Shown here one piece after another: positions 5,523 through 35,056 of a DNA stretch of 64,000 nt. A program made the translations under genes and the position numbers. This DNA is from Alphaproteobacteria bacterium (lineage in GTDB: Bacteria > Pseudomonadota > Alphaproteobacteria > CAAHEQ01 > UBA3637). The stretch covers positions 443 through 64,442 of the forward strand of contig JBGUXS010000078.1 of assembly GCA_045118155.1 (NCBI GenBank). Reading direction: 5' to 3'. The number at the start of each line of letters is the position of its first letter. Position 1 is the stretch's first letter. The notes beneath the pieces were generated by a model, which ran no database searches, was not told the origin of the DNA, and saw only the letters and a list, made by a program, of their open reading frames with translations.

Positions 5523-6064
5523 TGACGGAAGATTTTAAGTTTGAAGATGGTCTAGGACAGGATTATTGGATTCGTGAATTTCATAAAATTCCCTTTCCAG
5601 GAATGGAATTGTTTGAAGTAACTTTTTTTAGACGTATAGAAGGGGCCTATGTGGATAAACATCAGCGCTTTAGAGAAATGGCCGTTGATTTTCTAAAAGA
5701 TTTAGGGAAAGAGGAAGAAGAACTTTATGCTTTTGAATTTTCTGAGGCCGAAGTCGCTTTGATTAAAAAAGGTCGTCTACCAGAAAATTATACTGTCCAT
5801 TTAAAATATCCTTTAGAATACGGTTGTGCATTGATCCCAGAACAATTTGTTTTGATGCCTATTGCCCCTTATTATCGGGATATTAATACTTATATCTTCA
5901 GACAACTTATAACCGATGAAGGAATTAAAAAGCCCCATCACCTTTATGTTCCCACACCAACAGGGCGTATTTATAAACCTTATTCTGGGGATGCAAGTGG
6001 CAGCGGTGGGAAAAGTAATACTTCCCAAATGGCGGCTATGTTTAACCAGGGGCGGGGGCGTTAA
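5522..6064 (+). CDS. hypothetical 180-aa protein with a Gly/Ser-rich basic C-terminus (...SGDASGSGGKSNTSQMAAMFNQGRGR), translationally coupled to virD4 (TAATG)
   Basis: Stop/start overlap with the T4CP gene. No recognisable motifs. Net-positive C-terminal tail. Confidence 0.55.
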   Translation: MTEDFKFEDGLGQDYWIREFHKIPFPGMELFEVTFFRRIEGAYVDKHQRFREMAVDFLKDLGKEEEELYAFEFSEAEVALIKKGRLPENYTVHLKYPLEYGCALIPEQFVLMPIAPYYRDINTYIFRQLITDEGIKKPHHLYVPTPTGRIYKPYSGDASGSGGKSNTSQMAAMFNQGRGR

Positions 6065-6065
6065 T

Positions 6066-6524
6066 ATGAAATTAATACATGTTGTTTTAAAAGCTATTTA
6101 TAAAGATGCCGCTGTTGTTTTTAATCCTGTGGCTTTGACTGATGTTCAAAAGGCCTCTTTTGAAATTGTAAAAAATAAAGGGATTAAAATTCCTAATGAT
6201 TATGCTGCCTTTTTAACAGAAGTTGATGGATTATCCTGGAATGGATTGTATCTTTTTTCCTTAAATGAAAAGGAACGTCAAGATGGCGCTTTTGTGCACC
6301 CTGGCATTCTACAAACATACCATAAGGGCTTAAAAAATCCGATTTTTAAAAACAGGCTTTTATTAGGATACGGCCCTGAAGAAATCATTACATATCATGC
6401 GGGAAAAAAAGAATATCAAATCCTAAGTCAATATGATTACAGAATCCTAGTACGGCTTCCCCGCTTCTTTGATGTACTGTATCACTATACCCATGCTTTA
6501 TTTGAGGATGCCCCTAAGGACTAG
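6066..6524 (+). CDS. SUKH/Smi1-Knr4-like protein (immunity-protein fold), 152 aa
   Basis: IPNDYAAFLTEVDGLSWNGLYLFSL ... LLLGYGPEEIITYH resembles the SMI1/KNR4 (SUKH-1) signature. ATG at 6066 sits 1 nt after the previous stop. The track ORF 5916-6524 is an over-extension into the previous gene. Confidence 0.5.
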   Translation: MKLIHVVLKAIYKDAAVVFNPVALTDVQKASFEIVKNKGIKIPNDYAAFLTEVDGLSWNGLYLFSLNEKERQDGAFVHPGILQTYHKGLKNPIFKNRLLLGYGPEEIITYHAGKKEYQILSQYDYRILVRLPRFFDVLYHYTHALFEDAPKD

Positions 6525-6931
6525 GACAAATCTTGCTTAACATGTGGCGTTTGCAAAAGTTCTTCAATGTGATCGGCCACTTCTAAGGAAGTATCTTTTT
6601 TAAAGATTAAATCTGGCACAATTCTTAACCGGATTTCTTTTCCAATGCGGTAACGAAAAAGGCCTTTATGTGCATTTAACAACTTCACTTGTTCATTCAC
6701 ATCAATTCCCCCGATACCATTTACAAAAACACTTGCGTAACTCAAATCTGGGGAAATGTTAGCTTGTGTGATTTGTAAAGCCCTTGGTTTTAAACCTGAA
6801 ATAAACAAATCCTCTTTAACCAACATCTGTCCAATTAGACGCCGAATGCTTTCTGAAACCCGAAGTTGCCGTTGTGATTGTTCTGACGTTTTCATAGAAG
6901 CTATTATACCTTTTTTTCTTGTTCCTTTCAA
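6521..6931 (-). CDS. rbfA: ribosome-binding factor A
   Basis: RQLRVSESIRRLIGQML...ISPDLSYASVFV...IVPDLIFKKD matches the RbfA pattern. The true start may be the internal Met (MKTSEQ). Confidence 0.8.
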   Translation of the reverse strand: MKGTRKKGIIASMKTSEQSQRQLRVSESIRRLIGQMLVKEDLFISGLKPRALQITQANISPDLSYASVFVNGIGGIDVNEQVKLLNAHKGLFRYRIGKEIRLRIVPDLIFKKDTSLEVADHIEELLQTPHVKQDLS

Positions 6932-6939
6932 GAATCTTT

Positions 6940-7680
6940 TTAGAACAAGTATCTAAGCCCCACCAAAACCGTCTGACTTTTATTTTCAACAGAAATCGGA
7001 GTTTTAGAAACTTTATCTGTCAATGAAATACGGCCTGGATCCATATAACGGTACCCTACATCTAAATCCAAATCCCGACCTAAATGTGTCGTGACACCGG
7101 CGGCTACATTCCAAGCCATTTTATACTTCCATGTTTCATGATTATAATGGTTCGTTCCTTTGTCTGATTGAACACGAATACGGGATTGGCTGACCCCGAT
7201 TCCTCCCCCAATATAAGGGCTAAAAGTATAAGAAGGGAACAAATCATAATAGGCATTCAAAAAATAAGTATTCATTTTAATATTGCTTGCCCGAACCCGT
7301 GTTCCATCATCCAACTTAAATACCGCATCCCTTTTCCCATGAGAATTATAGCTACCTTCAAGTTCCGTCCGCACATTTCCAAGCATTGTTTTGACTTGAA
7401 CCCCCAAAGCCCCGCTTAATTCCATCAGCTCATCCTTTTTTTTCTGAGATTGCCCCCCAATAGCGGGTTCAAAATCCCGTCCTTTATAGCCGATTTTTGC
7501 CTCAACATAAACCCGTTGACTAGGTTCCAAAGAATTATCTTTCAGACTCTCTTCCATATATTTGTTCTTATCATCCATCACGTAAAAATCAGTATCTCCC
7601 GCATAAGAGGCATAGTAGACACCAGCTTGTGCGTAATAACTTGACAAAACAAAAAAAGTAAAAATAAGCTTCTTCATCAT
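6940..7680 (-). CDS. outer-membrane beta-barrel protein (OMP_b-brl / Omp25-opacity-like)
   Basis: Signal peptide MMKKLIFTFFVLSSYYAQA. Alternating hydrophobic beta-strands. C-terminal ...GLRYLF with a terminal Phe. Confidence 0.7.
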   Translation of the reverse strand: MMKKLIFTFFVLSSYYAQAGVYYASYAGDTDFYVMDDKNKYMEESLKDNSLEPSQRVYVEAKIGYKGRDFEPAIGGQSQKKKDELMELSGALGVQVKTMLGNVRTELEGSYNSHGKRDAVFKLDDGTRVRASNIKMNTYFLNAYYDLFPSYTFSPYIGGGIGVSQSRIRVQSDKGTNHYNHETWKYKMAWNVAAGVTTHLGRDLDLDVGYRYMDPGRISLTDKVSKTPISVENKSQTVLVGLRYLF

Positions 7681-17444: not shown

Positions 17445-18818
17445 CTATCCCCCAAGAGCTTTATAGATATGAATTAAATCCTGATATAAGGCATGGGTTG
17501 CCTGCACAAGTTCTCTTTGGCCAGCAATTAAATTCTGAAAAGCCGTGAGTACTTCAGAAAATGAAATCAACCCCCCAGTATATTTATCATATGTCAACTG
17601 ATAAACTTGTTGTAAATGGCTTAAACTTTGGTGCCTTAAATCATGAGTTTTTAAATCTTGATCTAACTCAACATAGGCATTTTTCACTTCATGAACCGCC
17701 GTCAGTAAAGCCTTTTCATAAGCAAGCAATTTTTCTTCCTTCATTTCTTTTTGAAGGATAATATTCTGTCGTAATACGCCCCAGTGAAACAACGGGGTAC
17801 TTACCCCAGGAAGTAGATGATATGTATAACTTTTATGATTAAGCAAAGAACTGACTTTATTATCTTGAAATCCCAAAAAAGTAGATAAATTGACTTTTGG
17901 GAAAAGCTCAGCAACAGCCATCCCAACAGCCGCATTTTGCCCAATTAATTCTTCTTCGGCGACACGGACATCTGGCCGATTCCGAAGCAATGAAACGCTA
18001 GCATCATACACCCGATTAACATCAAACAAAAACGGCTCTAAAATAATATTATGGGAACTTGCCAACTCTTTATTAAGCGTATTTGGTAAGTTCCCCAATA
18101 ATAAAGCAAGCGTATTTTTCTCTACCTGTTCTTGGGCTTTTAAGCCAGGTAATGCCGCCTTTGTTTCTGCTAACAAATATTTGGCTTGTTCTAATTCTAA
18201 TTTCGTTTCCAAGCCACTTTGATATTTCTTTTGAACCAAGTGTAACAAATCTTCTTGTGTCTTTATATTGCGCTGTAATAGGGATATCTGAGCTTGGACC
18301 ATACGTAATGACATATAAGCTAACGCTAATTGTGCCTGCACAGAAACAAAGACATTTTTTAATGCTTCTTGGGCCCCACGATAACTACTTTCTGCTTGCT
18401 CTGTCTGGCGACGTCCTCCGCCAAAGATATCTAATTCCCAATTGACATCAAAACCAACTTGATAATAATCTTCCTTAAGCAACATTGGCATAGATTTAGG
18501 CTCTTTTACATAGGTATACCCCGCTTCAATATCCACCATCGGTAAATTCTGCACGGATGTCTTTTTTAAAAAAGCACGTGCTTGTCTTAACCGCATAAGC
18601 GCTTGCCCAATATCTAGATTTTGTTCAGCTGTTTTAGTAAGCATACGGGTTAAAGGGGCTTCGTGAAAATCACTTAAATGAAAAGGTGCGTGAACCTGTT
18701 TGTTTTGAGATAAACCTAAAATTTGAGCCACTTCTTTATCTTCAAAAAAGATGGGACGTTGATAATCCGGTCCAACCGTGCACGAAACCAACACAAAAAA
18801 AAGAATAATTTTTTTCAT
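17445..18818 (-). CDS. RND efflux outer-membrane factor lipoprotein (NodT/OprM family)
   Basis: Lipobox LVSC. TolC-family repeats. Last gene of the operon. Confidence 0.85.
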   Translation of the reverse strand: MKKIILFFVLVSCTVGPDYQRPIFFEDKEVAQILGLSQNKQVHAPFHLSDFHEAPLTRMLTKTAEQNLDIGQALMRLRQARAFLKKTSVQNLPMVDIEAGYTYVKEPKSMPMLLKEDYYQVGFDVNWELDIFGGGRRQTEQAESSYRGAQEALKNVFVSVQAQLALAYMSLRMVQAQISLLQRNIKTQEDLLHLVQKKYQSGLETKLELEQAKYLLAETKAALPGLKAQEQVEKNTLALLLGNLPNTLNKELASSHNIILEPFLFDVNRVYDASVSLLRNRPDVRVAEEELIGQNAAVGMAVAELFPKVNLSTFLGFQDNKVSSLLNHKSYTYHLLPGVSTPLFHWGVLRQNIILQKEMKEEKLLAYEKALLTAVHEVKNAYVELDQDLKTHDLRHQSLSHLQQVYQLTYDKYTGGLISFSEVLTAFQNLIAGQRELVQATHALYQDLIHIYKALGG

Positions 18819-21800
18819 ATCTTTTTCCTTTTCCGGCGTATTTTAGGAACCGGAACCTTAAAATAACAGTGACGGCCAATCCCTTCACAAATACCATATA
18901 AGGCCGGAATAAATAAAATCCCAATACATGTAGCCGCTAACATCCCCGCGAATACCGTAACCCCAATGGATATCTGGCTGGAAGCCCCTGCCCCCGTGGC
19001 AAGCAACATAGGGACAACCCCTAAAATAAATGTTAAAGCCGTCATTAATACGGCACGAAAGCGTTCTTTTGCCCCATAAATACAGGATTGAACCAACGAT
19101 TGTCCTTGTCCACGGGCTTGTAAAATAAATTCCACAATTAAAATCGCATTTTTACTAGCAAGACCAATGAGTAATACTAACCCTAGCTGAGCATAAATAC
19201 TTAAAGGAAGGCCCCAAATCATGAGGCCTATCAAGGCCCCTAATAAAGCAAAAACATTTGAAAAAATGACCGAAAATGCCGTTAACCAACTTTCATATAA
19301 CCCAACCAAAAACAAATATCCAAAAATAATTGCCAACACAATTAAAATAAGAACCAAGCCCGATGTTTTAACCTCTTGTAAGCTCAATCCTGTCCAAGCT
19401 AACGCATACTTTGGTCCTAAGTCGTTCACCATTTTTTGCACCTGTTGAATTCCTTGCCCAGAACTCACCTCTTGTTTTGTAGCCGCTGTCACTGGAGCAC
19501 TTAAATACTGGTTAAACCGATACACAATCTTAGGGCTGAGTATGGTTTTGAACTCTATCAAATTTTTAAGGCGCACCATATTTCCACCCAAACTTGGAAC
19601 ATATAAATTTTCAATATTATTTTGATCTTGACGATAGGGGAAAGCCGCTTGTACAATCACTTTGTTAACTTGCCCTTGAACAGGAATATTATTAACATAT
19701 TGAGACCCTAAATTCGCTTGTAATACAGAAAAAATATTAGAAATTGGGACATGATAATTCAACGCTTTTGTACGATCAATTTCCAAAAATAAATGGGGAC
19801 TTCCAGGGGTTAATGTACTAAATCCAAACACAAAATTAGGGCTTTTTCGTATTTTTTGTATAACAGATTGCGTAGATATAAATAATTTTTCAAAAGAAAC
19901 ATCTTCATCTATAGCATTAATTTGAAAAGAAAGGCCATCACTTGTTCCAACGCCAGGAATAGATGGTAAGGCATAAAATTCTATAGATGCTTGCGTATTA
20001 TGCGTATAATTTTCCTGTAAACCATTTAAAATATGTGCTAAAGAAAGTGTTTTTGTTGTTCGTTGTTCCCATGGTTTTAACCCCACTACCCCCATCGCAA
20101 TATTTTCCCCTTGTCCCCCTAAAAAACTAACCCCAACAACAGAAATAAAATAACGAACCCCAGGTAAAGCCAGTATTTTTTGAGATAATTTTTCTAAGAC
20201 CGCTTCTGTCCTATTCCGGCTGGCTGTTTCGGGTAATTGAATATTCGCAAAAATGACCCCCTGATCTTCCTGGGGGATAAAGGAAGTTGGCCTGATAAAA
20301 AACAAGAAAAAAGTTCCAATTAAGGTACAACTAATTAAAAAAGAACTTGTTTTTAGGTGTTCACAAAAAAACCGTACCGCAGATATATATCGCTTTTTTG
20401 TCCACTCTAACATTTCATTAAAAAAATCAAAGATCTTTAAAGGATTCTTACTCTGCCGTCCCAAAAATAAAGCACATAAAGCGGGACTTAACGTCAAGGC
20501 ATTGACCGATGAAAATACAACCGCTGTCGCAATTGTAATTGCAAATTGCTGGTAAATTTTCCCCGTAATCCCCGCCATTAACCCAACAGGAACAAAAATA
20601 GATAACAAGACAAGCGTCGTTGCTATTACCACAGTACTAATATCTTTCATTGCTTGTATAGATGCCTCTTTTGCGGGCAATTTCCTATTTGCCATTAGGT
20701 ATTGCACCCGTTCTACCACAACAATAGCATCATCCACAACCAAACCGATAGCTAAAATAAGGGCAAATAAAGTTAAGATATTAATATCAAATCCTAAGAC
20801 ATAAATAACTGCAAACGTACTGATTAATGATACAGGAATTGTTATCATTGGAATAAATGTCGCAAAGATATTTTGTAAAAAAAGATATACAACCCCAACC
20901 ACCAACAAAAAAGTAATTAATAATGTTTCAATAATCCCTTTTAACGATGCCCGCACAAAATCAGTAGAATCATATACAACTTCTAATTCCAATCCCTCTG
21001 GGAAATGATACGTCAAGGTTTTAATTTCTTGGCGTACTGCCTGCATCGTCTGCAAGGAATTTGTCCCAGGTGTCTGGCTTAAAGCCATAATAACTGCTGG
21101 CTGATTATTAAACAAAGAAGTCATTTGATAGGTATCCGCCCCCCAAGAAACTTCTGCCACATCTTTCAACCTAACAATTCCCCCTTTAGTATCCACAGCA
21201 ACCACAATTTCTTCAAAATCAGAAACACTTTTTAAAAATCCCTTTGCGCTTAAGGTTAAAACAAAAGCATTTGTCACAGGACTTGGGGCTGCCCCCAAAG
21301 ATCCAACACTAGCTTGAACATTCTGATTTTCAATTGCCTGAATAATATCTTGAGAACTTAATCCTAAAGCATTTAACTTCATAGGATTTATCCAAACACG
21401 AATACTATGTTGTGGGCCATAAACTGTTACATCCCCAACCCCATGTACCCGAGATAGTGGATTTTTTAAATAGGTATATGCATAATTACTTAAAAACAAA
21501 TCCGAATAAGAGTTATTTTTCCCTTTTAAAACAAGCATCCCTAGCATATTTGCTGATTGTAATTTTACTTCTATCCCTTCTTGACGAACTATAGGGGGCA
21601 GAATAGGTTCTACCTGTTGTAACCGATTTTGTACTTTAACCTGAGCTATATCAGGGTCGGTCCCAATATTAAAAGTAATGGTCAATTGATAAACACCATT
21701 ATCATTTGAAGTAGAAGACATATATAACATATCTTCAACCCCATTAATTTCATTTTCAATTGGAATAGCCACTGTCTCTGTTAGAATTTGAGCATTTGCA

Positions 21801-21958
21801 CCGGGATAATTAACTGAAACAATCACTTGCGGAGGGGTAATATCTGGATATTGGGAAATTGGCAACACACTTATCGCTAATCCCCCCAACAAAACCATTA
21901 CAATAGCAATAACGGCCGCAAACCTAGGATGAGTAATACAAAATTGGGAACCCGTCAT
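18815..21958 (-). CDS. RND (HAE1/AcrB-family) multidrug efflux transporter
   Basis: 1047 aa, 12-TM RND signature. The N-terminus ...LPISQYPDITPPQVIVSVNYPGA is AcrB-like. Confidence 0.92.
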   Translation of the reverse strand: MTGSQFCITHPRFAAVIAIVMVLLGGLAISVLPISQYPDITPPQVIVSVNYPGANAQILTETVAIPIENEINGVEDMLYMSSTSNDNGVYQLTITFNIGTDPDIAQVKVQNRLQQVEPILPPIVRQEGIEVKLQSANMLGMLVLKGKNNSYSDLFLSNYAYTYLKNPLSRVHGVGDVTVYGPQHSIRVWINPMKLNALGLSSQDIIQAIENQNVQASVGSLGAAPSPVTNAFVLTLSAKGFLKSVSDFEEIVVAVDTKGGIVRLKDVAEVSWGADTYQMTSLFNNQPAVIMALSQTPGTNSLQTMQAVRQEIKTLTYHFPEGLELEVVYDSTDFVRASLKGIIETLLITFLLVVGVVYLFLQNIFATFIPMITIPVSLISTFAVIYVLGFDINILTLFALILAIGLVVDDAIVVVERVQYLMANRKLPAKEASIQAMKDISTVVIATTLVLLSIFVPVGLMAGITGKIYQQFAITIATAVVFSSVNALTLSPALCALFLGRQSKNPLKIFDFFNEMLEWTKKRYISAVRFFCEHLKTSSFLISCTLIGTFFLFFIRPTSFIPQEDQGVIFANIQLPETASRNRTEAVLEKLSQKILALPGVRYFISVVGVSFLGGQGENIAMGVVGLKPWEQRTTKTLSLAHILNGLQENYTHNTQASIEFYALPSIPGVGTSDGLSFQINAIDEDVSFEKLFISTQSVIQKIRKSPNFVFGFSTLTPGSPHLFLEIDRTKALNYHVPISNIFSVLQANLGSQYVNNIPVQGQVNKVIVQAAFPYRQDQNNIENLYVPSLGGNMVRLKNLIEFKTILSPKIVYRFNQYLSAPVTAATKQEVSSGQGIQQVQKMVNDLGPKYALAWTGLSLQEVKTSGLVLILIVLAIIFGYLFLVGLYESWLTAFSVIFSNVFALLGALIGLMIWGLPLSIYAQLGLVLLIGLASKNAILIVEFILQARGQGQSLVQSCIYGAKERFRAVLMTALTFILGVVPMLLATGAGASSQISIGVTVFAGMLAATCIGILFIPALYGICEGIGRHCYFKVPVPKIRRKRKKI

Positions 21959-26322: not shown

Positions 26323-27459
26323 ATGCGTATCTTATACTTGTTTTTAATGGCTTTTTTGTTTGCTTTCCCCTCGTTAGGGGTAACGGTTCAAGATGTTCGT
26401 TTTTCGGCATCCTCTCCTCAAAAAGTACGGTTGGTTGCTGATTTATCCGAAAAAACAGAAGCTAAAGTTTTTAGGTTACAAAATCCCCCACGGTTAGTTG
26501 TTGATTTTGAAAAGGCAACTTTTTCTTCTGTTGTTAAAAATAATACTTTTAAACCTGTTGCCTTCATTGAAGGAATTCGTTTAGGGGTTCCTCAACCTAA
26601 TATCGGGCGGCTTGTCTTGGATATTCCCACAAAAGATTTAACCGAAAACCACTTTTTCCTTCCTCCGGGGGCGGGGAAAACTTGGCGTTTTGTCATTGAT
26701 TTAACGTTGGCCGAATCTACAAATTCAGAGGCAACAACTTACCATAAGGGGCTTACACCATTTCCAGCAAAAGCCCCCCGACAAAAAATTGTCATGTTGG
26801 ATCCGGGGCATGGGGGGCAAGATCCAGGGGCGATTTCTTCCACGGGGAAGTATGAAAAACACTTAACACTTTTATTTGCCAATGAAGCTAAAAAAGTGTT
26901 AGAAAAAAAAGGGTATACCGTTTATATGACCCGAACAAATGATACGGCCGTTTCTCTTCGATCCCGTATAGAAAAAGCCCATAAACACAATGCCGATATT
27001 TTTATTTCTATCCACGCCGACAGTGCCAAAAATAAATCCGCAAAAGGATTATCTATTTACACGATTTCTGAAAAAGCCTCTGATGCAGAAGCAGCCGCCT
27101 TAGCCGAACGTGAAAACAAAGCGGATATCATTTTAGGGATCAATCTAGAAGAATACCAAGAATCTATTGGCAACATTTTAATTGACTTAGCTAAACGCGA
27201 TACTATGGATAAATCTGCCCAATATGCAGAACTCTTTGTCAAGGAAGTTAAGCATACCGCCCAACTAAAAACCACCCCTCATCGCTTTGCTGGATTTGTG
27301 GTTTTAAAATCACCAAACATACCATCTGTTCTAATAGAACTTGGATATCTTTCCAACAAGAAAGAAGAAAAGATGCTTCAAAAGAAATCCTACCGAGCCG
27401 AAATCATTACTGCCCTTGCTAAAGGCTTAGATCAATACTTTAAAGAATTGGGGGATTGA
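26323..27459 (+). CDS. amiC: N-acetylmuramoyl-L-alanine amidase (AMIN + Amidase_3)
   Basis: Signal peptide, then an AMIN-like N-domain. MLDPGHGGQDPGA...HADS Amidase_3 motifs. Confidence 0.85.
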   Translation: MRILYLFLMAFLFAFPSLGVTVQDVRFSASSPQKVRLVADLSEKTEAKVFRLQNPPRLVVDFEKATFSSVVKNNTFKPVAFIEGIRLGVPQPNIGRLVLDIPTKDLTENHFFLPPGAGKTWRFVIDLTLAESTNSEATTYHKGLTPFPAKAPRQKIVMLDPGHGGQDPGAISSTGKYEKHLTLLFANEAKKVLEKKGYTVYMTRTNDTAVSLRSRIEKAHKHNADIFISIHADSAKNKSAKGLSIYTISEKASDAEAAALAERENKADIILGINLEEYQESIGNILIDLAKRDTMDKSAQYAELFVKEVKHTAQLKTTPHRFAGFVVLKSPNIPSVLIELGYLSNKKEEKMLQKKSYRAEIITALAKGLDQYFKELGD

Positions 27460-27758
27460 TGCCACCATTTTTAAGCCCTGATGAAGATTCGTGTCTTTTA
27501 CACATTTTATTGGTTCCTAATGCTAAAGAAAATAAGATTTATGGTCTTTTTAATGAACGATTAAAACTTTATATTTCTGCCCCAGCTGTGGACGGAAAAG
27601 CGAATAAAGCTTTAATTAAATACCTGGCTGATCTCTTTAACCTAAAAAAAAATCAGATTTCCTTGATACAAGGGGAAAGATCCCATCAAAAAACAGTACG
27701 ACTAGATGCCCCTATTGACCACATCTGTACTTGTTTAAGTCAACATATTTCCGTGTAA
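27456..27758 (+). CDS. DUF167 (YggU) family protein
   Basis: LKLYISAPAVDGKANKALIKYLADLF... Confidence 0.7.
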   Translation: MMPPFLSPDEDSCLLHILLVPNAKENKIYGLFNERLKLYISAPAVDGKANKALIKYLADLFNLKKNQISLIQGERSHQKTVRLDAPIDHICTCLSQHISV

Positions 27759-28805
27759 AATACGTGTAATCTCGCTTCCTTGCATCAAAGAAAAACCTAA
27801 GGCTTGGGCTTGTTGTATTTCTTGAGGGGTTTGAATATCAAACAAGATAATTTTTTCTTTAGGATAATTCAAAGTAGCAGCCCATTTCATCTGTTGACTA
27901 TTAATCTTTAGGTAATGCATCGGGATTTTATCCCATGCTAAATAGGATATTTCCTCCGGAATGCGTAATAAAAAGAGGGATTGTTGATAACAAGGTATTT
28001 TTTGAATACTTTGCCATAAATCCCGTTCCCAAAGAAAATCTGATAAACTTATTTCATAAGAAATACCTTGATGTTGATACAATTGGTGCATTTCCTGATA
28101 AACGGGTTGGGTTAAAAGATAAGGACTCGCAGAAAAAACTCCTCCTTGTGTTTTGGGCAATTCCTTTTTTAAAATTTTTGTATACAGCGCATTCTTAAAG
28201 GCCCTTTTCAAATATGTATCAGAATCCAATATCACCTTTGGAAATAGAACTTGACGGACATCAATATCTTTACAAAAAACACTGGTAAATACAGGAACCA
28301 TCTCGGTTAAATCATGAACCTGACAAATGCATTGATGCCGTGTTAAATGTGAAACATCCGCTGTTTTTAGCTCTGATAAAATATGTGTGAGAGTTGGGGT
28401 ATCCAAGGGCAATGAAGGAATTTTTTGAAGCACTTTTAAATCAGAAAAATCTGCTGTTGGGGTTAGCTCTTGATGATTAATTTTATGGATCAAAGCATTA
28501 AAATCTGTGATTAAATTAAAAAATGATAATTTATGTTCTTGGAAAAAGGATTTTTCCAGCCCCTTTAATTTCAAGGAAAGCAACATCATATCCTGTAATT
28601 TATTATGGGCAAAAAAGGCAACGCTATCCCCTTCGCTTAAAAAGAACAATTTCGTTTGATATGTCTGTTCAAAAGAACTCAAAAAATGCAAAAGAACCTT
28701 TTTTTTCTCATCTTCTTTAGGTAAAGGAATATAAAGAGCATGCCCTTTAAATGTTCTTTTTTCAAGATATTTGAGATAGTCAAAAACACTATTATACCGC
28801 ATCAT
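27735..28805 (-). CDS. hypothetical protein with a degenerate EAL-like C-terminal domain
   Basis: C-terminal ...YLKINSQQM...KIILFDIQTPQEIQQAQALGFSLMQG mirrors the EAL end (KID...EGVE...GCD..QG) but lacks the catalytic residues. Confidence 0.5.
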   Translation of the reverse strand: MMRYNSVFDYLKYLEKRTFKGHALYIPLPKEDEKKKVLLHFLSSFEQTYQTKLFFLSEGDSVAFFAHNKLQDMMLLSLKLKGLEKSFFQEHKLSFFNLITDFNALIHKINHQELTPTADFSDLKVLQKIPSLPLDTPTLTHILSELKTADVSHLTRHQCICQVHDLTEMVPVFTSVFCKDIDVRQVLFPKVILDSDTYLKRAFKNALYTKILKKELPKTQGGVFSASPYLLTQPVYQEMHQLYQHQGISYEISLSDFLWERDLWQSIQKIPCYQQSLFLLRIPEEISYLAWDKIPMHYLKINSQQMKWAATLNYPKEKIILFDIQTPQEIQQAQALGFSLMQGSEITRILHGNMLT

Positions 28806-29874
28806 ATCCCCTTAAATGTTGCACACACACGCATTGTGATGCTTGATGCGGGATCGCCCCCATTTGCATACACGTTTGTAAAGCACAATCTCCCCCATAT
28901 GGACACGTTTTTTTTCGAGAAGCCGCATGAATCAAATCAATAAAATCACCTTGAAAAAAGGTATATGGGGAAGACAGAATTTGAGTTAATTTTTCTTGCG
29001 TATCCACTCCTGTTACAAAAACAGGAACATGATTGATTGATTGTGTTAAACAAACTTCTACGGGAAGAAGTAAAAAATCAGCTTCTAATAAATCAAAACG
29101 ATAAAAGGCCGTTTCTGCAGTAATGCCCCCAATACCTAACCGATACTGTTTTCCTGGACGAGTTAGGGCTTCCTTATACAGATTTTTATTTAACAAGACT
29201 TCTGCAATATCTAAAATAATCCAAACTGGGTCATTATTTTCAATCCAAGCACTTTCCAACGTTCCTTGCACCATCAAAGGCAATGTCGTTTGTTTAAACA
29301 GCTCTTTATTTGGGTGTTGCAATAATTGTTTCTGTATTTTCTGAACTAACCACATTGGAAGCTGATCCATATTGTTTTTTAAGGTCCATGTATATCCCCA
29401 CAGAGAGTTGCTCCCCTTTTGATAAATTACCCGCCTAAACCAACTATTTTTTTCGGGAATATCTTTTAAAAAAGCCTCATAATCAACCTCTTGATTCGTT
29501 TGCTTTTTAGCTATCTGAATCAGGGACAAAACCCCCATCAAATCCTGTGGTAAATGGAACAAGCGTACATTTTCTTCTTTTTTTCCTGTTTGAATTTGAA
29601 AAAATGTTTGAATTTGGCGCATCACATCCACAACTTGATGTTCATCAAGATCAACCCCTATTAATAAACGATCTTGTTGTTCAAATGTAAAAAGCCGACA
29701 ATATTCATACGCTAATAACGGTTCTAATAAATGTTCTATGACGTGCATCAACCTTTCGGCCCCTGGCAGACCTAATAATTGACTTGTCCCTATCCAAAGG
29801 ACAACCGACGGTGTTTCTAAAGCAGCGACACGCTTTATTGTTTCTAAGGCCAGTTGTTCTTGTGTCTCATACAT
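28792..29874 (-). CDS. hypothetical protein with a degenerate EAL-like domain and a Cys-rich C-terminal tail
   Basis: YRLGIGGITAETAFYRFDLLEADFLLLPVEV...VPVFVTGVDTQEKL...FQGDF parallels the EAL DDFGTG...KIDRSF...EGVET...QGY layout. Tail TCPYGGDCALQTCMQMG...QCVCVQH. Confidence 0.5.
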   Translation of the reverse strand: MYETQEQLALETIKRVAALETPSVVLWIGTSQLLGLPGAERLMHVIEHLLEPLLAYEYCRLFTFEQQDRLLIGVDLDEHQVVDVMRQIQTFFQIQTGKKEENVRLFHLPQDLMGVLSLIQIAKKQTNQEVDYEAFLKDIPEKNSWFRRVIYQKGSNSLWGYTWTLKNNMDQLPMWLVQKIQKQLLQHPNKELFKQTTLPLMVQGTLESAWIENNDPVWIILDIAEVLLNKNLYKEALTRPGKQYRLGIGGITAETAFYRFDLLEADFLLLPVEVCLTQSINHVPVFVTGVDTQEKLTQILSSPYTFFQGDFIDLIHAASRKKTCPYGGDCALQTCMQMGAIPHQASQCVCVQHLRGYDAV

Positions 29875-29980
29875 TTTTTCTTCCTAAACTTGAGCTTTCA
29901 GTATAAAGGATATCCTTGAAAAAACAACTTGTTTTTTTGGGAAAAATCTTGCATACTCCTTTCAATAGGAGGAATCACAC

Positions 29981-31951
29981 ATGCATTACTTAACAGGGGA
30001 AGAAGTTTCTGTCACATCCTTAAAAACAATAGCCCAAGAATTTGGTTTTATGTTGTGGCCGCACCCCGATGATCCTTTCTTATTGCATAAAACACCCTAT
30101 CAAAGTTTTCCAGAAATGCTTTCTGTCCTTACAGATCATATTACAGAAAAAAAACTTAATTCCCTCTTCACTTTCCCTGTTTCTTTCATCTTAGATGCGA
30201 ATGCACAATCTGAATCCTTACATAACTTCTTTAAATATCAAGCCCGTAACCAATTGGATAAAACCATCGGTGTCTTGCTAACTTGCCCCGTTATTTACGC
30301 CTGTGATGTTGCGCAAATTTTTACCGAAGCCTTACATCAACGATTACACTTTCCTAGCACACGTTACAGTAATATTCATATGGCTATTCATGAAGCGCTC
30401 GTCAATGGTTTAGTGCATGGAAATCTAAAACTACCTAGTTCTTTACGGCAATCAGCTCGTGATTTCGTTGATTACGCCCGCATTGTTAATGAACGCTTAT
30501 TAGACCCTGCCTATGCTAATAAATCCATCAGTATTTGGGCTACTTGGAATACCTCTAGATTGGAAATTAAGATTCGGGACGAAGGGGCTGGATATACGGT
30601 TTTACCCCCCCATAAAAAACATGTGGCAGAAAAACGTTCTGGACGGGGGCTTTATCTAATTGCCGGAACTGCTGATTCCTGCACAATTGATGATTTTGGG
30701 CGAGAAATCACATTATCTTTTATTCTAAATAATCTAAACAACGAACAAGATATCGGGGTTTCTGAAAATGCGGCTTTACTGCATGATCCTGTAACCGATT
30801 TTTCGGATTGTCGTATTTTAATCATTGAAGATAACCCCAGTAATCAAATCTTGGTTTCACAACTTTTAAACGTGGTTGGAATTGGTCATATTGAAACAGC
30901 TCAAGATGGGGTTGAAGGCCTTGAAAAAGCATTCAGTATGAAACCAGACTTAGTCATTTTGGACATCACTATGCCCCGAATGAATGGATATGAAGTACTT
31001 CACCAACTCAGAACAAATCAAGATACGGCCTCTATCCCGGTTTTAATTCAAACGGCTTCTGATACACGGGCAGCACGGGATAAAACTTTTAGTGCGGGGG
31101 CAACAGACTTTATCACAAAGCCATTAAATCCTTTGGAATTTTTCTCTCGGATACGGGTACACTTAGAAAATAGATTACTTGTAAAACATCTTGAAACGAA
31201 ACTCGCTCAAATCAATGAAGAACTAGAACTTGCCCAAAAAATGCAAGAAAGTTTATTACCCCCCACGGAAGCACTTCAAGATATCAGCCAACGTTATCAT
31301 CTAGATATTTCTTATACGTTCTTACCTTCTTCCCATTTAGGGGGGGATTTCTGGCAAATTTTTCCATTGGCTAAAGATAAGGTCGCTTTTTATATTTGCG
31401 ATTTTTCGGGACATGGGGTAAGTGCTGCCATGAATACGTTCCGATTACACACCTTAATCGGGCAAATGGATATGACGGCATTGAAAAAGCCTTCCGAATT
31501 TCTTTTTATGCTTAATAATTCTTTGGTCAACTTGTTGCCCAGGGGACAATTTGCTACTTTCTTCTTTGGTATTTTAAACAAGCGACAAGGAACATTAACA
31601 TATGCTGGGGCCAGTTCGCCCTTCCCTATTTTGGTTAAGGACAACAAACCCTCTTTCTTAGATACTTCCGGGATGCCTTTGGGAATTTTAAAGGACGTTA
31701 CTTATAAAGATAAAAAGGTACCATTTTCCAAAGAAATGGGCATTTTACTATACAGTGACTCTTTCACTGAACAACAAAATAAAGAAGGAAATCGCCTTGA
31801 TTATGATGGTTTTATGAAAATGACTCAGACGTGTTTCTCAGAAAAAACATCTCAACAAGTCATTGCCCAAATCATGCAAAAATTTCATGAATTTTCTGAC
31901 ACCCCTAGTACCGATGATATTACGGCTGTCTATTTGAAAGGCCTCTTATGA
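29981..31951 (+). CDS. multidomain signalling protein: RsbW-like HATPase_c_2 kinase domain, receiver (REC) domain and PP2C/SpoIIE phosphatase
   Basis: N-box IHEALVNGLVHGN, G-boxes IRDEGAGY and GRGLYLIAG. REC domain ILIIEDNP...DLVILDITMP...ITKP. PP2C domain GGDFW...ICDFSGHGVSAAM...DDITAV. Confidence 0.75.
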   Translation: MHYLTGEEVSVTSLKTIAQEFGFMLWPHPDDPFLLHKTPYQSFPEMLSVLTDHITEKKLNSLFTFPVSFILDANAQSESLHNFFKYQARNQLDKTIGVLLTCPVIYACDVAQIFTEALHQRLHFPSTRYSNIHMAIHEALVNGLVHGNLKLPSSLRQSARDFVDYARIVNERLLDPAYANKSISIWATWNTSRLEIKIRDEGAGYTVLPPHKKHVAEKRSGRGLYLIAGTADSCTIDDFGREITLSFILNNLNNEQDIGVSENAALLHDPVTDFSDCRILIIEDNPSNQILVSQLLNVVGIGHIETAQDGVEGLEKAFSMKPDLVILDITMPRMNGYEVLHQLRTNQDTASIPVLIQTASDTRAARDKTFSAGATDFITKPLNPLEFFSRIRVHLENRLLVKHLETKLAQINEELELAQKMQESLLPPTEALQDISQRYHLDISYTFLPSSHLGGDFWQIFPLAKDKVAFYICDFSGHGVSAAMNTFRLHTLIGQMDMTALKKPSEFLFMLNNSLVNLLPRGQFATFFFGILNKRQGTLTYAGASSPFPILVKDNKPSFLDTSGMPLGILKDVTYKDKKVPFSKEMGILLYSDSFTEQQNKEGNRLDYDGFMKMTQTCFSEKTSQQVIAQIMQKFHEFSDTPSTDDITAVYLKGLL

Positions 31952-32655
31952 TTCGGGTGTATATAGAGGCTCTGGACCCTAAAAAACCAACACCTCTTTC
32001 TGTGGATCACTATCATTATTTGGCCCACGTTATGCGTTTAAAAGCGGGGGACAGTTTTTTAGCGTTTAATCAACTTCAAGGGGAATTTTTAGCTGTATTT
32101 CAACCTAAAAACAAAAAAGAAGGTCATCTTTTACTACAAAAACAAACGCGTTTACCAGAACAACCTCGTCCGCCTGTAACACTTTATATCGCCCCTATCC
32201 GAAAAGAAAAAATGGAACTTGTGTTACAAAAGGCAACAGAAATTGGCGTAGAGATCATCCAACCTATTTTAACGAAACATACATGCCATCGGCCTTTATC
32301 AAAAGAACGGGCGGATATTATTATAAAAGAAGCGGTAGAACAATCTGAACGGCTGACATTACCTAATTGGCTTCCCCCTATATCTTTGGAAGAACTTCTT
32401 ATTAAACGTTCAACAGATATCCCTCTTTTTTACCTATCCGAACGAGGGGAAACGCAACATATTTCTTTGCCCGCCCCTCCTATAAGCTTTCTTATCGGAC
32501 CAGAAGGGGGATTTTCTAAGGAAGAAATTACCTTATTAGGTCAACAAAAAAACGCCCAAGCTATCAACCTAGGCGCTTTTATTCTACGGGCGGAAACAGC
32601 CGCTATTGCTATGCTAGCGACCTACCGCTTTCATAAACTGTTTTATACAGCTTGA
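31948..32655 (+). CDS. rsmE: 16S rRNA (uracil1498-N3)-methyltransferase
   Basis: MIRVYIE...HYLAHVMRLKAGDSFLAFNQLQGEF... with a C-terminal SPOUT fold. Confidence 0.8.
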   Translation: MIRVYIEALDPKKPTPLSVDHYHYLAHVMRLKAGDSFLAFNQLQGEFLAVFQPKNKKEGHLLLQKQTRLPEQPRPPVTLYIAPIRKEKMELVLQKATEIGVEIIQPILTKHTCHRPLSKERADIIIKEAVEQSERLTLPNWLPPISLEELLIKRSTDIPLFYLSERGETQHISLPAPPISFLIGPEGGFSKEEITLLGQQKNAQAINLGAFILRAETAAIAMLATYRFHKLFYTA

Positions 32656-32831
32656 CGTAGTTTTTCCTCACAGCAACACTTTTCTTCAACAAACCATATA
32701 CGATCTTCAAATTCGGATTTTTTCCCCTTATTGAATTGGCTAACAGGACGAAAATACCCCATAACCCGTGTCCAACATTCCACCGCTTGACGTTCATTAG
32801 AAAATTTTTCTAAAATTTGGTTATCTGTCAT
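32643..32831 (-). CDS. stand-alone glycyl-radical domain (NrdD C-terminal-like) small protein, 62 aa
   Basis: RVMGYFRPVSQFNKGKKSEFEDRIWF matches the class III RNR glycyl-radical motif (RVCGY...N.GK..E..DR). ATGA overlap with the nrdD stop. Confidence 0.6.
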   Translation of the reverse strand: MTDNQILEKFSNERQAVECWTRVMGYFRPVSQFNKGKKSEFEDRIWFVEEKCCCEEKLRQAV

Positions 32832-34897
32832 GCTTTGTTCTCCTTTTCTGCAAGTTCTTGACGTTTTTTTTCAATGAGTTCCGCATCACACTTTGGGCAG
32901 AACTTGTGTTCCCCACTAATATACCCATGCTTGGGGCAAATAGAATAGACAGGGGTAATAGAAACATAAGGAAGATGATAATTTTCTAATACCCGTCTAA
33001 TAAGTGATTTACAAACACTTGCTGAAGAAATCCGTTCATTCATATACAGGTGCAAAACCGTTCCCCCTGTATACTGTGTTTGCAATTCATCTTGATAATC
33101 CAACGCTTTAAACGGATCATCTGTGAAGTTCTGTGGTAATTGAGAAGAGTTTGTATAATAGGGGGCCTCTTTCTTTCCTGCTTGAATAATACCAGGATAG
33201 CGTTTTTGATCTTCTTTGGCAAAACGATATGTTGTCCCTTCAGCTGGCGTTGCTTCCAAATTGTACATATTTCCTGTTTCTGCTTGGAAATCCAGCATTT
33301 TTTCCCGAATATGTGTTAAAAATTCTTTAGCCATCGCCCGCCCTTTTTCCGAAGCAATGTATTCTTCATCATTAGTAAAGTTCCGAATCATTTCATTAAT
33401 ACCATTAACCCCAATCGTGGAAAAATGATTTCGGAATGTTCCTAAATATCGCCGTGTATAAGGATACAACCCCCGATCCATGTGCATTGAAATGGTTTTA
33501 CGTTTAATTTCTAAGGAAGTCTTCGCTAATTCCAGTAATTCATCCAAACGTTTATACAATTCCTCTTTCTTCCCCTTATACAGGTATCCCAAACGGGCAC
33601 AGTTAATTGTAACAACCCCAATAGACCCCGTTTGTTCTGCTGAACCAAATAAACCACCACCTCGTTTTTTCAATTCCGTCAAATCCAACCGTAACCGACA
33701 ACACATTGAACGAATATCTGAAGGCTTCATATCAGAACTAACATAGTTTGAAAAATAGGGTAATCCATATTTAGCCGTCATTTCAAATAACAATTCCGTA
33801 TTTTCAGAATCCCATGGGAATTCATTTGTAATATTGTATGTCGGGATAGGGAAAGTAAACGGCCGCCCTTTGGCATCCCCACTTCCCATAACTTCTAAAT
33901 AAGCCCTATTAATCATATCCATTTCTTTTTGCAGATCACCATAAACAAAATCTTGTTCCACCCCCCCAATGATAGGGTGCCGATTCTTCAAATCTTCAGG
34001 GCAATTCCAATCAAAAGTTAAGTTCGTAAAGGGTGTCTGTGTCCCCCAACGCGATGGTACATTCAAGTTAAAGATGAAGGATTGCATCGCTTGTTTTACT
34101 TCTTCATAAGGTAATTTTTCAATTCGTATAAATGGTGCTAAGTACGTATCCACAGAAGAAAACGCCTGTGCCCCAGCCCATTCATTCTGCAAAGTCCCCA
34201 AGAAATTAATCATCTGGCTAAACGCAGAAACAAGGTGTTTTGGCGGTTTAGATTCTGTCTTATTGGGAACCCCATTAAAACCTTCTTCTAATAAAACCCT
34301 TAAGGACCACCCTGCACAATACCCACTCAACATATCCAAATCATGAATATGATAATCCCCATTTCGGTGAGCTTCCCCAATTTCTGGCGTATACACGTGG
34401 CTCAACCAATAATTGGCCACCACCTTTCCTGCCGTATTTAAAATCAATCCCCCTAAGGAATATCCTTGATTAGCATTTGCGTTCACCCGCCAATCTGACC
34501 GATCTAAATATTCATTAATAGAAGCCACCGCATCAATAACCGTTTTCTTATCATTCCGCATTTTTCCGCGTTGTTCACGGTACACGATATAAGCCCGGGC
34601 AGTTTTGTAATAATTAGAGGAAATTAAAACCTGTTCAACCACATCTTGAATTTGCTCAATATTAGGATAAACCCCGAAAGCAAACCGATGCTTTAAAACC
34701 TTAATAACTTGTCTTGTTAATAACCACGCTTCATCTTGACCGAATTCAGCCGTTGCTTCCCCAGCTTTCAAAATAGCAACCATAATTTTAGTCACATCAA
34801 ACGGATACTGTTGCCCATCCCGTTTAATTACATAGCTCAACGGACTAATATCAATGGTTACATTTAGCGGCTGGGCTCCTGTCAAAACTTGCAACAT
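32828..34897 (-). CDS. nrdD: anaerobic (class III) ribonucleoside-triphosphate reductase, large catalytic part without a glycyl-radical domain
   Basis: N-terminal ATP-cone (VIKRDGQQYPFDVTKI...AYIVYREQR). SMCCRLRLD region. C-terminal Zn ribbon CPKHG...CPKC. The ORF ends before any RVxGY motif. Confidence 0.75.
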   Translation of the reverse strand: MLQVLTGAQPLNVTIDISPLSYVIKRDGQQYPFDVTKIMVAILKAGEATAEFGQDEAWLLTRQVIKVLKHRFAFGVYPNIEQIQDVVEQVLISSNYYKTARAYIVYREQRGKMRNDKKTVIDAVASINEYLDRSDWRVNANANQGYSLGGLILNTAGKVVANYWLSHVYTPEIGEAHRNGDYHIHDLDMLSGYCAGWSLRVLLEEGFNGVPNKTESKPPKHLVSAFSQMINFLGTLQNEWAGAQAFSSVDTYLAPFIRIEKLPYEEVKQAMQSFIFNLNVPSRWGTQTPFTNLTFDWNCPEDLKNRHPIIGGVEQDFVYGDLQKEMDMINRAYLEVMGSGDAKGRPFTFPIPTYNITNEFPWDSENTELLFEMTAKYGLPYFSNYVSSDMKPSDIRSMCCRLRLDLTELKKRGGGLFGSAEQTGSIGVVTINCARLGYLYKGKKEELYKRLDELLELAKTSLEIKRKTISMHMDRGLYPYTRRYLGTFRNHFSTIGVNGINEMIRNFTNDEEYIASEKGRAMAKEFLTHIREKMLDFQAETGNMYNLEATPAEGTTYRFAKEDQKRYPGIIQAGKKEAPYYTNSSQLPQNFTDDPFKALDYQDELQTQYTGGTVLHLYMNERISSASVCKSLIRRVLENYHLPYVSITPVYSICPKHGYISGEHKFCPKCDAELIEKKRQELAEKENKA

Positions 34898-35056
34898 ATA
34901 GTCTTTCCTTTCTTAAAAATTACTAAATATAGTTGTTTTACTCCTTTTTTTCTTTTTCTAGTCAACCGTTTTTCTCCCCCAAAGTCAATAGCTATTTTAA
35001 AAATAAAACAACTTTTTTTTAAACTCATTGAAAAATAGAAATATTTTTTAATGAAT

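Follow-up and report, generated by a model that had tools for sequence, protein, structure and literature searches.

Paired degenerate GGDEF-EAL-like genes divergent from a SypE-like regulator gene in gut Alphaproteobacteria

Two adjacent genes, designated A and B here, lie on the minus strand of a 64,000-nt stretch of DNA from an Alphaproteobacteria bacterium (assembly GCA_045118155.1, contig JBGUXS010000078.1, positions 443 to 64,442; referred to below as the window), divergent from a gene for a protein with Ser-kinase, REC and PP2C phosphatase domains. An earlier note on this DNA, made from the sequence alone, described both products as degenerate EAL-like proteins of the kind used as non-enzymatic receptors of cyclic diguanylate (c-di-GMP) or as protein-interaction modules. 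The question raised by the locus is what such a pair can do once the catalytic residues of its domains have been replaced, and whether it is connected with the signaling gene next to it. The explanation that we favor as a whole, with a probability of about 0.55, is that A and B are a co-transcribed duo of dead GGDEF-EAL proteins which would form a hetero-complex and be co-controlled with the neighboring regulator, whose layout is that of SypE of Vibrio fischeri.

Structure of the gene pair

The two genes have the following positions in the window:

28792-29874, minus strand: gene A, 360 amino acids (aa); A-type protein with degenerate GGDEF-like and EAL-like domains and a Cys4 tail
27735-28805, minus strand: gene B, 356 aa; B-type protein with degenerate GGDEF-like and EAL-like domains, tail-less

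These are the two open reading frames (ORFs) of about 360 codons that the earlier note had reported, with exactly the coordinates, the 14-nt overlap and the divergent orientation given there. The overlap is 11 nt if the second Met is used, and in public gene calls the start of B is placed one codon downstream, which shortens the product to 355 aa (P0003). At related loci the overlaps of A and B are also small (4 nt or 1 nt), so translational coupling of the two genes is conserved. B and a convergent DUF167/YggU gene (27456-27758, plus strand) overlap at their 3′ ends by 24 nt (27735-27758). No terminator-like hairpin was found within 27300-30300. The G+C content of the window is about 39%.

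Routine searches do not detect the relationships of these proteins. Neither A nor B gave any Pfam or NCBIfam match, even at E<=1, and neither these two proteins nor the orthologues P0016, P0046 and P0009 matched the Pfam EAL model (PF00563) directly above its gathering score. Sequence searches of the PDB with A or B, or with a 13-sequence profile, returned no match; only deeper profiles succeeded. BLASTP found no similarity between A and B, whose kinship is visible at the profile level only. A word-indexed search of 5.8 billion proteins yielded two relatives for A and three for B, and such searches gave two to four proteins per query, joint alignment included, so the family is very sparsely sampled. 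In NCBI records the orthologues of B carry the name 'hypothetical protein', and all named source organisms of the relatives are uncultured Alphaproteobacteria from ruminant and other gut samples.

Folds of the two domains

The domains assigned to the two proteins are located as follows:

28906-29487, minus strand: EAL-like barrel of A, residues ~130-323
27753-28415, minus strand: EAL-like domain of B, residues ~130-350, placed by alignment guided by a hidden Markov model (HMM) and by the motif map
29500-29874, minus strand: GGDEF-like domain of A, residues 1-125, with E-Q-Q-D-R at the hairpin, G-T-S at the DxD and A-Y-E-Y at the I-site

Four indirect lines of evidence agree in supporting an EAL-like identity, with the (beta/alpha) barrel fold, for the C-terminal halves of both proteins. 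When the B family was compared by hhalign with three real EAL domains (MorA 4rni, PA0575 5m3c and MucR 5m1t), the probability was 81% (E 1.2e-5), and the alignment spanned EAL positions 85-238 with all landmarks in register. Profile-profile comparison of the C-terminal regions of A and B gave a probability of 93.5%, and the two families proved collinear over their full length. A HMMER search of 1.84 billion representatives with a joint A+B profile returned 183 proteins at E<=1e-3, mostly of 400-430 aa; Pfam EAL recognized 97 of the 108 relatives tested (~90%), typically over model positions ~55-235. A 126-sequence family profile matched solved EAL domains by sequence (RbdA 8pps, 2.6e-10; BlrP1, 7.3e-6; Lmo0131, 2.6e-4). 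The top PDB matches of the AlphaFold models were all EAL or tandem GGDEF-EAL structures. The predicted fold of A is confident; in B, residues 220-352 were modeled with a predicted local distance difference test score (pLDDT) of 73-92 and the top 50 Foldseek matches were all EAL domains, while the N-terminal half of this model, built from a six-sequence alignment, was poor. Among the closest structural matches are the c-di-GMP receptors FimX and LapD and the EAL-like YdiV/STM1697. Profile comparison and structure prediction thus both return the EAL fold that the earlier note had proposed for the C-terminal halves.

The description as degenerate EAL-like modules therefore stands, but it was incomplete, for the N-terminal ~125 residues of both A and B had been overlooked; on profile and model evidence these are degenerate GGDEF-like domains. 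Residues 1-125 of A were modeled with pLDDT 84-97 and have the topology alpha-beta-alpha-alpha-beta-beta-alpha-beta-alpha of the GGDEF/nucleotidyl-cyclase palm fold. The top 17 Foldseek matches of A were tandem GGDEF-EAL structures (RbdA/PA0861, LapD, DosP, MorA and PA0575), with ~390-410 aligned columns and E values of about 1e-9 to 1e-7. A profile of the N-terminal domain of the family matched five real GGDEF domains with a probability of 77% (E 2e-5).

State of the active sites

At the position of the GG(D/E)EF hairpin A has E-Q-Q-D-R and B has S-E-G-D-S, so neither protein has a cyclase A-site. The metal-binding DxD of strand beta1 reads G-T-S, and at the I-site, the RxxD of PelD-type receptors that precedes the A-site by five residues, the RDVD of PA0575 aligns, with moderate confidence, with A-Y-E-Y in A, which is not an RxxD motif. 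With the A-site, DxD and I-site residues gone, cyclase activity and I-site binding are excluded on sequence grounds.

The EAL sites were compared by aligning all A, B and wider-family proteins, together with canonical EALs, to the family HMM. All motif equivalences proposed in the earlier note were reproduced. In A, 'LGIGGITAET' corresponds to DDFGTG, 'VTGVDTQEK' to EGVET and 'FFQG' to QGY; in B, 'YLKINSQ' corresponds to LKIDRSF, 'LFDIQTPQE' to EGVET and 'LMQG' to QGY. An active EAL phosphodiesterase has the catalytic and metal-binding set E, N, E, DD, K, E, Q, which is complete in neither protein. Of this set A retains Q308 only, followed by G309, plus the D of 'GVD'; other residues (I220, GG, L269 and others) stand in place of all of the catalytic E, N, E, DD and K, and the YQP-type Gln is gone. 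In B, E250, K299 and Q341 of the set remain, along with Q157 (the YQP-type Gln), D255 and G342. Its losses are the Glu of the EAL motif (to Ser), the Asn of NLS (to Ser or Ala), the first Asp of DDFGTG (to Arg) and EGVE, which has become FDIQ. In total, about two of the catalytic residues survive in A and about four in B. Judged by these residues, hydrolysis of c-di-GMP by A or B is very unlikely; ligand binding is very unlikely for A and doubtful for B.

The wider family is less degraded. Among 114 of its proteins the N of NLS is retained in 108, the first E of ExxE in 113, the first D of DDFGTG in 106, the K of KID in 113, an acid at the second EGVE position in 107 and the Q of QG in 112; the E of the EAL strand is present in all seven aligned wider-family proteins (three pairs and the Thalassospira singleton). 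The losses in the wider family are the second D of DDFGTG, replaced by G, and the first E of EGVE, replaced by C, A or S.

The A-type/B-type duo and the Cys4 tail

The Cys-rich tail that the earlier note had seen in the upstream protein is real:

28825-28905, minus strand: Cys4 tail of A, residues 324-350; C-x5-C-x4-C-x12-C (CPYGGDC ALQT C ... C)

Its four cysteines, C324, C330, C335 and C348, are invariant across all A orthologues, and the tail can be defined as a motif of ~35 aa, C-x5-C-[ST]-x3-C-x2-R...R-x2-C-x4-5-[ML][LV]D. It was present in 17 of 140 full-length representatives, all 17 of A-type, and in none of 101 B-type proteins. No Pfam model covers it, and a literature search for Cys- or Fe-S-tailed EAL proteins, or for any characterized member of the family, returned nothing specific. 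The tail, a putative metal-binding mini-domain, probably serves as a site for metal (Zn or Fe-S) or for redox chemistry.

The order A then B recurs at L005, in four ruminant-gut metagenome-assembled genomes (L007-L010), and at L011/L012, L014 and L016. The gut-clade pair is found in at least six lineages, at 23-48% identity overall and with the same divergent neighbor. Between lineages the identity is 23-36% for A and 25-48% for B, compared with 54-69% for the kinase-REC-PP2C protein and 40-56% for RsmE. Three less degenerate pairs belong to the wider family: L017 (427+393 aa), L018 (438+406 aa) and L019 (430+430 aa). In all three, the product of the upstream gene fits the A profile better than the B profile and has a C-x5-C-x4-C-x12-15-C tail, and that of the downstream gene fits the B profile better and is tail-less. 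A and B are ancient paralogues. Thalassospira and Azospirillum have single copies without the tail, and the Azospirillum relative was for this reason rejected as a model for the pair.

The L017 pair (region of 3382-4538 and 4716-7182) directly adjoins an alphaproteobacterial hprK / EIIA-Man / HPr cluster similar to the nitrogen-related phosphotransferase system (PTS-Ntr-like), and the L019 pair comes after a hybrid histidine kinase. These neighbors are possible hints to the ancestral signaling context of the duo.

For the unsaturated pair L008/L009 (dS ~0.18), the ratio of nonsynonymous to synonymous substitution rates (dN/dS) was 0.062 for A and 0.069 for B, in the same range as for neighboring genes. 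Such low values indicate that the fast divergence of the proteins reflects a tolerant but constrained fold and not decay. Together with the recurrence of the pair in at least six lineages beside the same neighbor, they also indicate that the pattern is not due to chance.

The divergent regulator gene

29981-31951, plus strand: kinase-REC-PP2C gene, 656 aa; N-terminal ~105 aa, HATPase_c_2, REC and PP2C (SpoIIE)

Pfam models recognize HATPase_c_2 (2.9e-11), Response_reg (4.8e-26) and SpoIIE/PP2C (5.2e-36) in this protein, and direct reading located all of the N-box, G-box, receiver-Asp and PP2C motifs (N-box HEALVNGLVHGN, DEGAGY, the Asp of LDITMP, GGDFW, DFSGHG and DDIT). An RsbW-like Ser kinase, a REC domain and a PP2C phosphatase are joined in one chain, which is the layout of SypE. 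In Vibrio fischeri, SypE both phosphorylates and dephosphorylates the adjacent STAS protein SypA (PMC3610818). The window protein differs from SypE in its additional N-terminal ~105 aa, in that no STAS gene was found nearby and in being paired with the A/B operon instead. The search for a STAS gene covered the called genes at the loci, the ten small ORFs of the window and a scan of ORFs with a small profile; it found none, a weak negative as the genomes are partial. A STAS identity for the N-terminus of the kinase protein or for the N-terminal domains of A and B was also considered and rejected (hhalign probability <1%, again a weak negative obtained with a small profile). The extension itself (residues 1-105, 29981-30295, plus strand) is well conserved, with the blocks YLTG..VS, LWP..PF, ITE.KL and LLTCPVIY.CDVAQIFTE; no family was found for it, the only match being a weak RWP-RK-like one at residues 9-28 (E 0.05).

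Every gut-clade locus that covers the region upstream of A has the core order rsmE and kinase-REC-PP2C on one side and, divergently, A and B on the other. Genes outside this core vary from locus to locus.

The intergenic control region

29875-29980: divergent control region, 106 bp between A and the kinase-REC-PP2C gene, defined by direct reading and a six-lineage alignment
29919-29937: palindrome, 19 nt, perfect, AAAAAACAA-C/G-TTGTTTTTT, invariant in six lineages

In the alignment of the spacer from six lineages the palindrome AAAAAACAA-G-TTGTTTTTT was invariant while the rest of the spacer had diverged. Each of 13 loci has a single exact copy of its 15-nt core, in every case upstream of A, and there is none in the wider-family loci. 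By direct reading of the sequence, each half contains TTGTTT, and the two copies can be read as back-to-back -35-like hexamers. On the A side the outward-facing -10-like box is TATACT (plus-strand AGTATA, 29900-29905), 16 nt from TTGTTT; on the kinase side it is CATACT (29952-29957), at a distance of 17 nt. Hexamers and spacing together suggest two back-to-back -35 elements. A scan with consensus promoter and terminator models reported no site in the spacer and fewer sites overall than in shuffled sequence. The palindrome may be the symmetric core of a bidirectional promoter, an operator for a dimeric factor, or both.

When metagenomes were scanned for exact copies of the 19-mer, at least 120 matches came up, and among these only the window's own organism carried A and B. 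The other matches are chance AT-rich occurrences and so give no information on a regulon. Within the window, a weak copy of the palindrome (2-3 mismatches, AAAAAAAAGTTGTTTTA) lies between genes at 35004-35020, ~107-123 nt upstream of nrdD, and a possible NrdR-box-like sequence, ACAACTATATTTAGT, is nearer to the nrdD start. A 17-nt palindrome core with one mismatch, at 20338-20354, is inside a large RND-type transporter coding sequence (18815-21958, minus strand) and is probably there by chance.

Proposed role of the duo and alternatives

In the explanation that we favor, A and B would be co-transcribed, translationally coupled, stand-alone tandems of a dead GGDEF-like and a dead EAL-like domain, the gut-clade pair being devoid of diguanylate cyclase chemistry and having lost nearly all phosphodiesterase chemistry. 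Most likely the two proteins form a non-enzymatic hetero-complex, a pseudoenzyme scaffold or sensor, as suggested by the age and conservation of the tandem and by the coupled translation of its genes. In A the Cys4 tail would be a Zn or Fe-S site, either structural or redox/metal-sensing, and any nucleotide pocket still present in B would be vestigial. Protein-protein contact is the probable mode of action of the complex, as in the case of the EAL-like YdiV/STM1697. A compact bidirectional promoter would express the pair under co-control with the SypE-like Ser-kinase/REC/PP2C response regulator, and the pair probably belongs to the pathway of this regulator as input, scaffold or target.

Several observations weigh against parts of this explanation. 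The rsmE gene is as syntenic with the kinase gene as A and B are, so conserved adjacency is by itself no proof of a functional link. A SypE-like neighbor is absent from the wider-family pairs and from the singletons of Thalassospira and Azospirillum, so any link would be specific to the gut clade. The complex of A with B is deduced from the tandem arrangement and the coupling. With Q157, E250, K299 and Q341 retained, B could possibly bind a ligand. The GGDEF-like assignment of B comes from its collinear alignment with A and the wider family, in a region where the AlphaFold model is poor. Finally, the palindrome could be merely two overlapping -35/UP elements and not an operator.

Degenerate GGDEF and EAL proteins are known to be re-used as receptors and as protein-binding regulators; to our knowledge each of the characterized cases is a single protein. 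LapD and FimX, which give the best structural matches over the full length (V. cholerae LapD 6pwj, P. fluorescens LapD 3pjw, FimX 4j40/7lkq), have the same GGDEF-EAL order and fold with both domains non-catalytic. They differ from A and B in bearing sensor or transmembrane parts (HAMP, PAS, REC) and a c-di-GMP-binding EAL pocket, whereas A and B are stand-alone proteins of ~355 aa that have lost most pocket residues and make up an obligate-looking paralogous pair, with the Cys4 tail on A. YdiV (RflP)/STM1697 is a single EAL-like domain and has no GGDEF-like domain, Cys tail or paired paralogue; its target FlhD4C2 is enterobacterial, and no such target is known for A and B. The nearest relatives are an alphaproteobacterial family of 'EAL domain-containing protein' members of ~400-430 aa (for example Thalassospira tepidiphila WP_338185420.1 and, from metagenome-assembled genomes, MCK5296585.1 and MBO5997444.1), which are full-length homologues of A and B (joint-profile E down to 1e-19) with the same build and often the same tandem. 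Unlike the gut-clade proteins, they score at or near the Pfam EAL threshold, and E, N, E, D, K, D/E and Q are still present in them; they have neither the kinase-REC-PP2C neighbor nor the palindrome.

The receptor role suggested in the earlier note, with A and/or B binding c-di-GMP without hydrolyzing it and relaying the signal as FimX and LapD do, is unproven, and we consider it on the whole an unlikely though serious competitor. For A it is unlikely, because the Gln, the EAL Glu, the Asn, the Glu, the Asp-Asp and the Lys are all missing; for B it is a live rival. Besides the structural resemblance to FimX and LapD, it has in its favor that B retains a YQP-type Gln, one of the metal Glu residues, the Lys and the QG. 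The contacts of FimX with c-di-GMP include the Gln, an Arg of the EAL strand and the QG (PMC7288161). The Gln and QG of B correspond to Q463 and Q673/G674 of that list, but at the EALxR Arg position the window B has Lys and other B orthologues have Asp, and neither the Asn nor the Asp is left; in A nearly all of these contacts have disappeared. Since E, N, E, D, K, D/E and Q persist in the less degenerate relatives, the ancestor probably bound nucleotide and metal. The pocket residues of the gut-clade proteins nevertheless vary among orthologues despite purifying selection, which is unexpected for a conserved ligand site. The check for GGDEF proteins that the earlier note had proposed found no canonical GGDEF or EAL gene in ~220 kb from these organisms, a weak argument as this is a few percent of each genome. 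The EAL fold and the one Glu and Lys of B might also be taken to mean that A, B or both still hydrolyze c-di-GMP at an unusual active site. Characterized enzymes of the EAL type, RocR and TBD1265 among them, require the Glu of the EAL motif, the Asn, both Asp of DDFGTG and the Glu of EGVE; as all of these are missing from A and B, we give this reading hardly any credence. Equally improbable is that the genes are functionless remnants of once-active GGDEF-EAL enzymes, as their lost catalytic residues and their rapid divergence relative to the neighboring gene might suggest. Intact ORFs in all lineages, the invariant Cys4 motif, the conserved gene overlap and the confident AlphaFold fold speak against it, and dN/dS values equal to those of neighboring genes effectively refute it.

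A more speculative but attractive reading makes the A/B complex the replacement of a STAS protein, that is, the phospho-substrate or partner-switching output of the SypE-like kinase/phosphatase. The usual target of a protein with SypE architecture is a STAS protein next to it (PMC3610818), none of the loci showed a STAS gene nearby, and A and B are the sole genes besides rsmE that are always co-located and co-promoted with the kinase gene. The argument is purely contextual. No conserved phospho-acceptor Ser or Thr was identified (the invariant-looking T17 of B is Ile in L014_B), and the STAS partner could be encoded elsewhere, the search having used a small Firmicute profile and partial genomes; we hold this reading to be rather improbable. 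The same low standing is given to a version in which a redox- or metal-sensing A/B heterodimer with an Fe-S or Zn Cys4 site, and not a STAS protein, partners the SypE-like kinase/PP2C, being phosphorylated by it or gating its switch, under autoregulation through the palindrome and independently of c-di-GMP.

Returning to the dead, co-controlled duo, its general kind, the degenerate GGDEF-EAL pseudoenzyme, is already known. What is distinctive is the A/B duo itself, the Cys4 mini-domain specific to A, a gut branch invisible to Pfam and the invariant palindrome linking the pair to a SypE-like gene. A and B belong to a conserved two-gene unit across Alphaproteobacteria, the most degenerate branch of which escapes both Pfam and NCBIfam, and no member of the family appears to have been studied. 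The sites of its members grade naturally from near-canonical to wholly dead while purifying selection stays constant, a series useful for asking what EAL and GGDEF pseudoenzymes do after their nucleotide chemistry is lost. It is also a candidate non-STAS partner for a SypE-type kinase/phosphatase, and its palindrome is a sharply defined, easily testable control element. If A and B do partner the SypE-like protein, the whole module would be a c-di-GMP-independent device built from c-di-GMP parts, in organisms that possibly do not have c-di-GMP.

Split nrdD gene

Further along the window the anaerobic ribonucleotide reductase NrdD is encoded in two pieces. The larger (32828-34897, minus strand, 689 aa) ends just past the Zn-ribbon Cys motif. 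The glycyl-radical motif, RVMGYFRP, is in the second (32643-32831, minus strand, 62 aa), which has a 4-nt overlap with the first. The split is not a sequencing error, as the same 689+62 gene calls occur in four independent assemblies (L001-L004).

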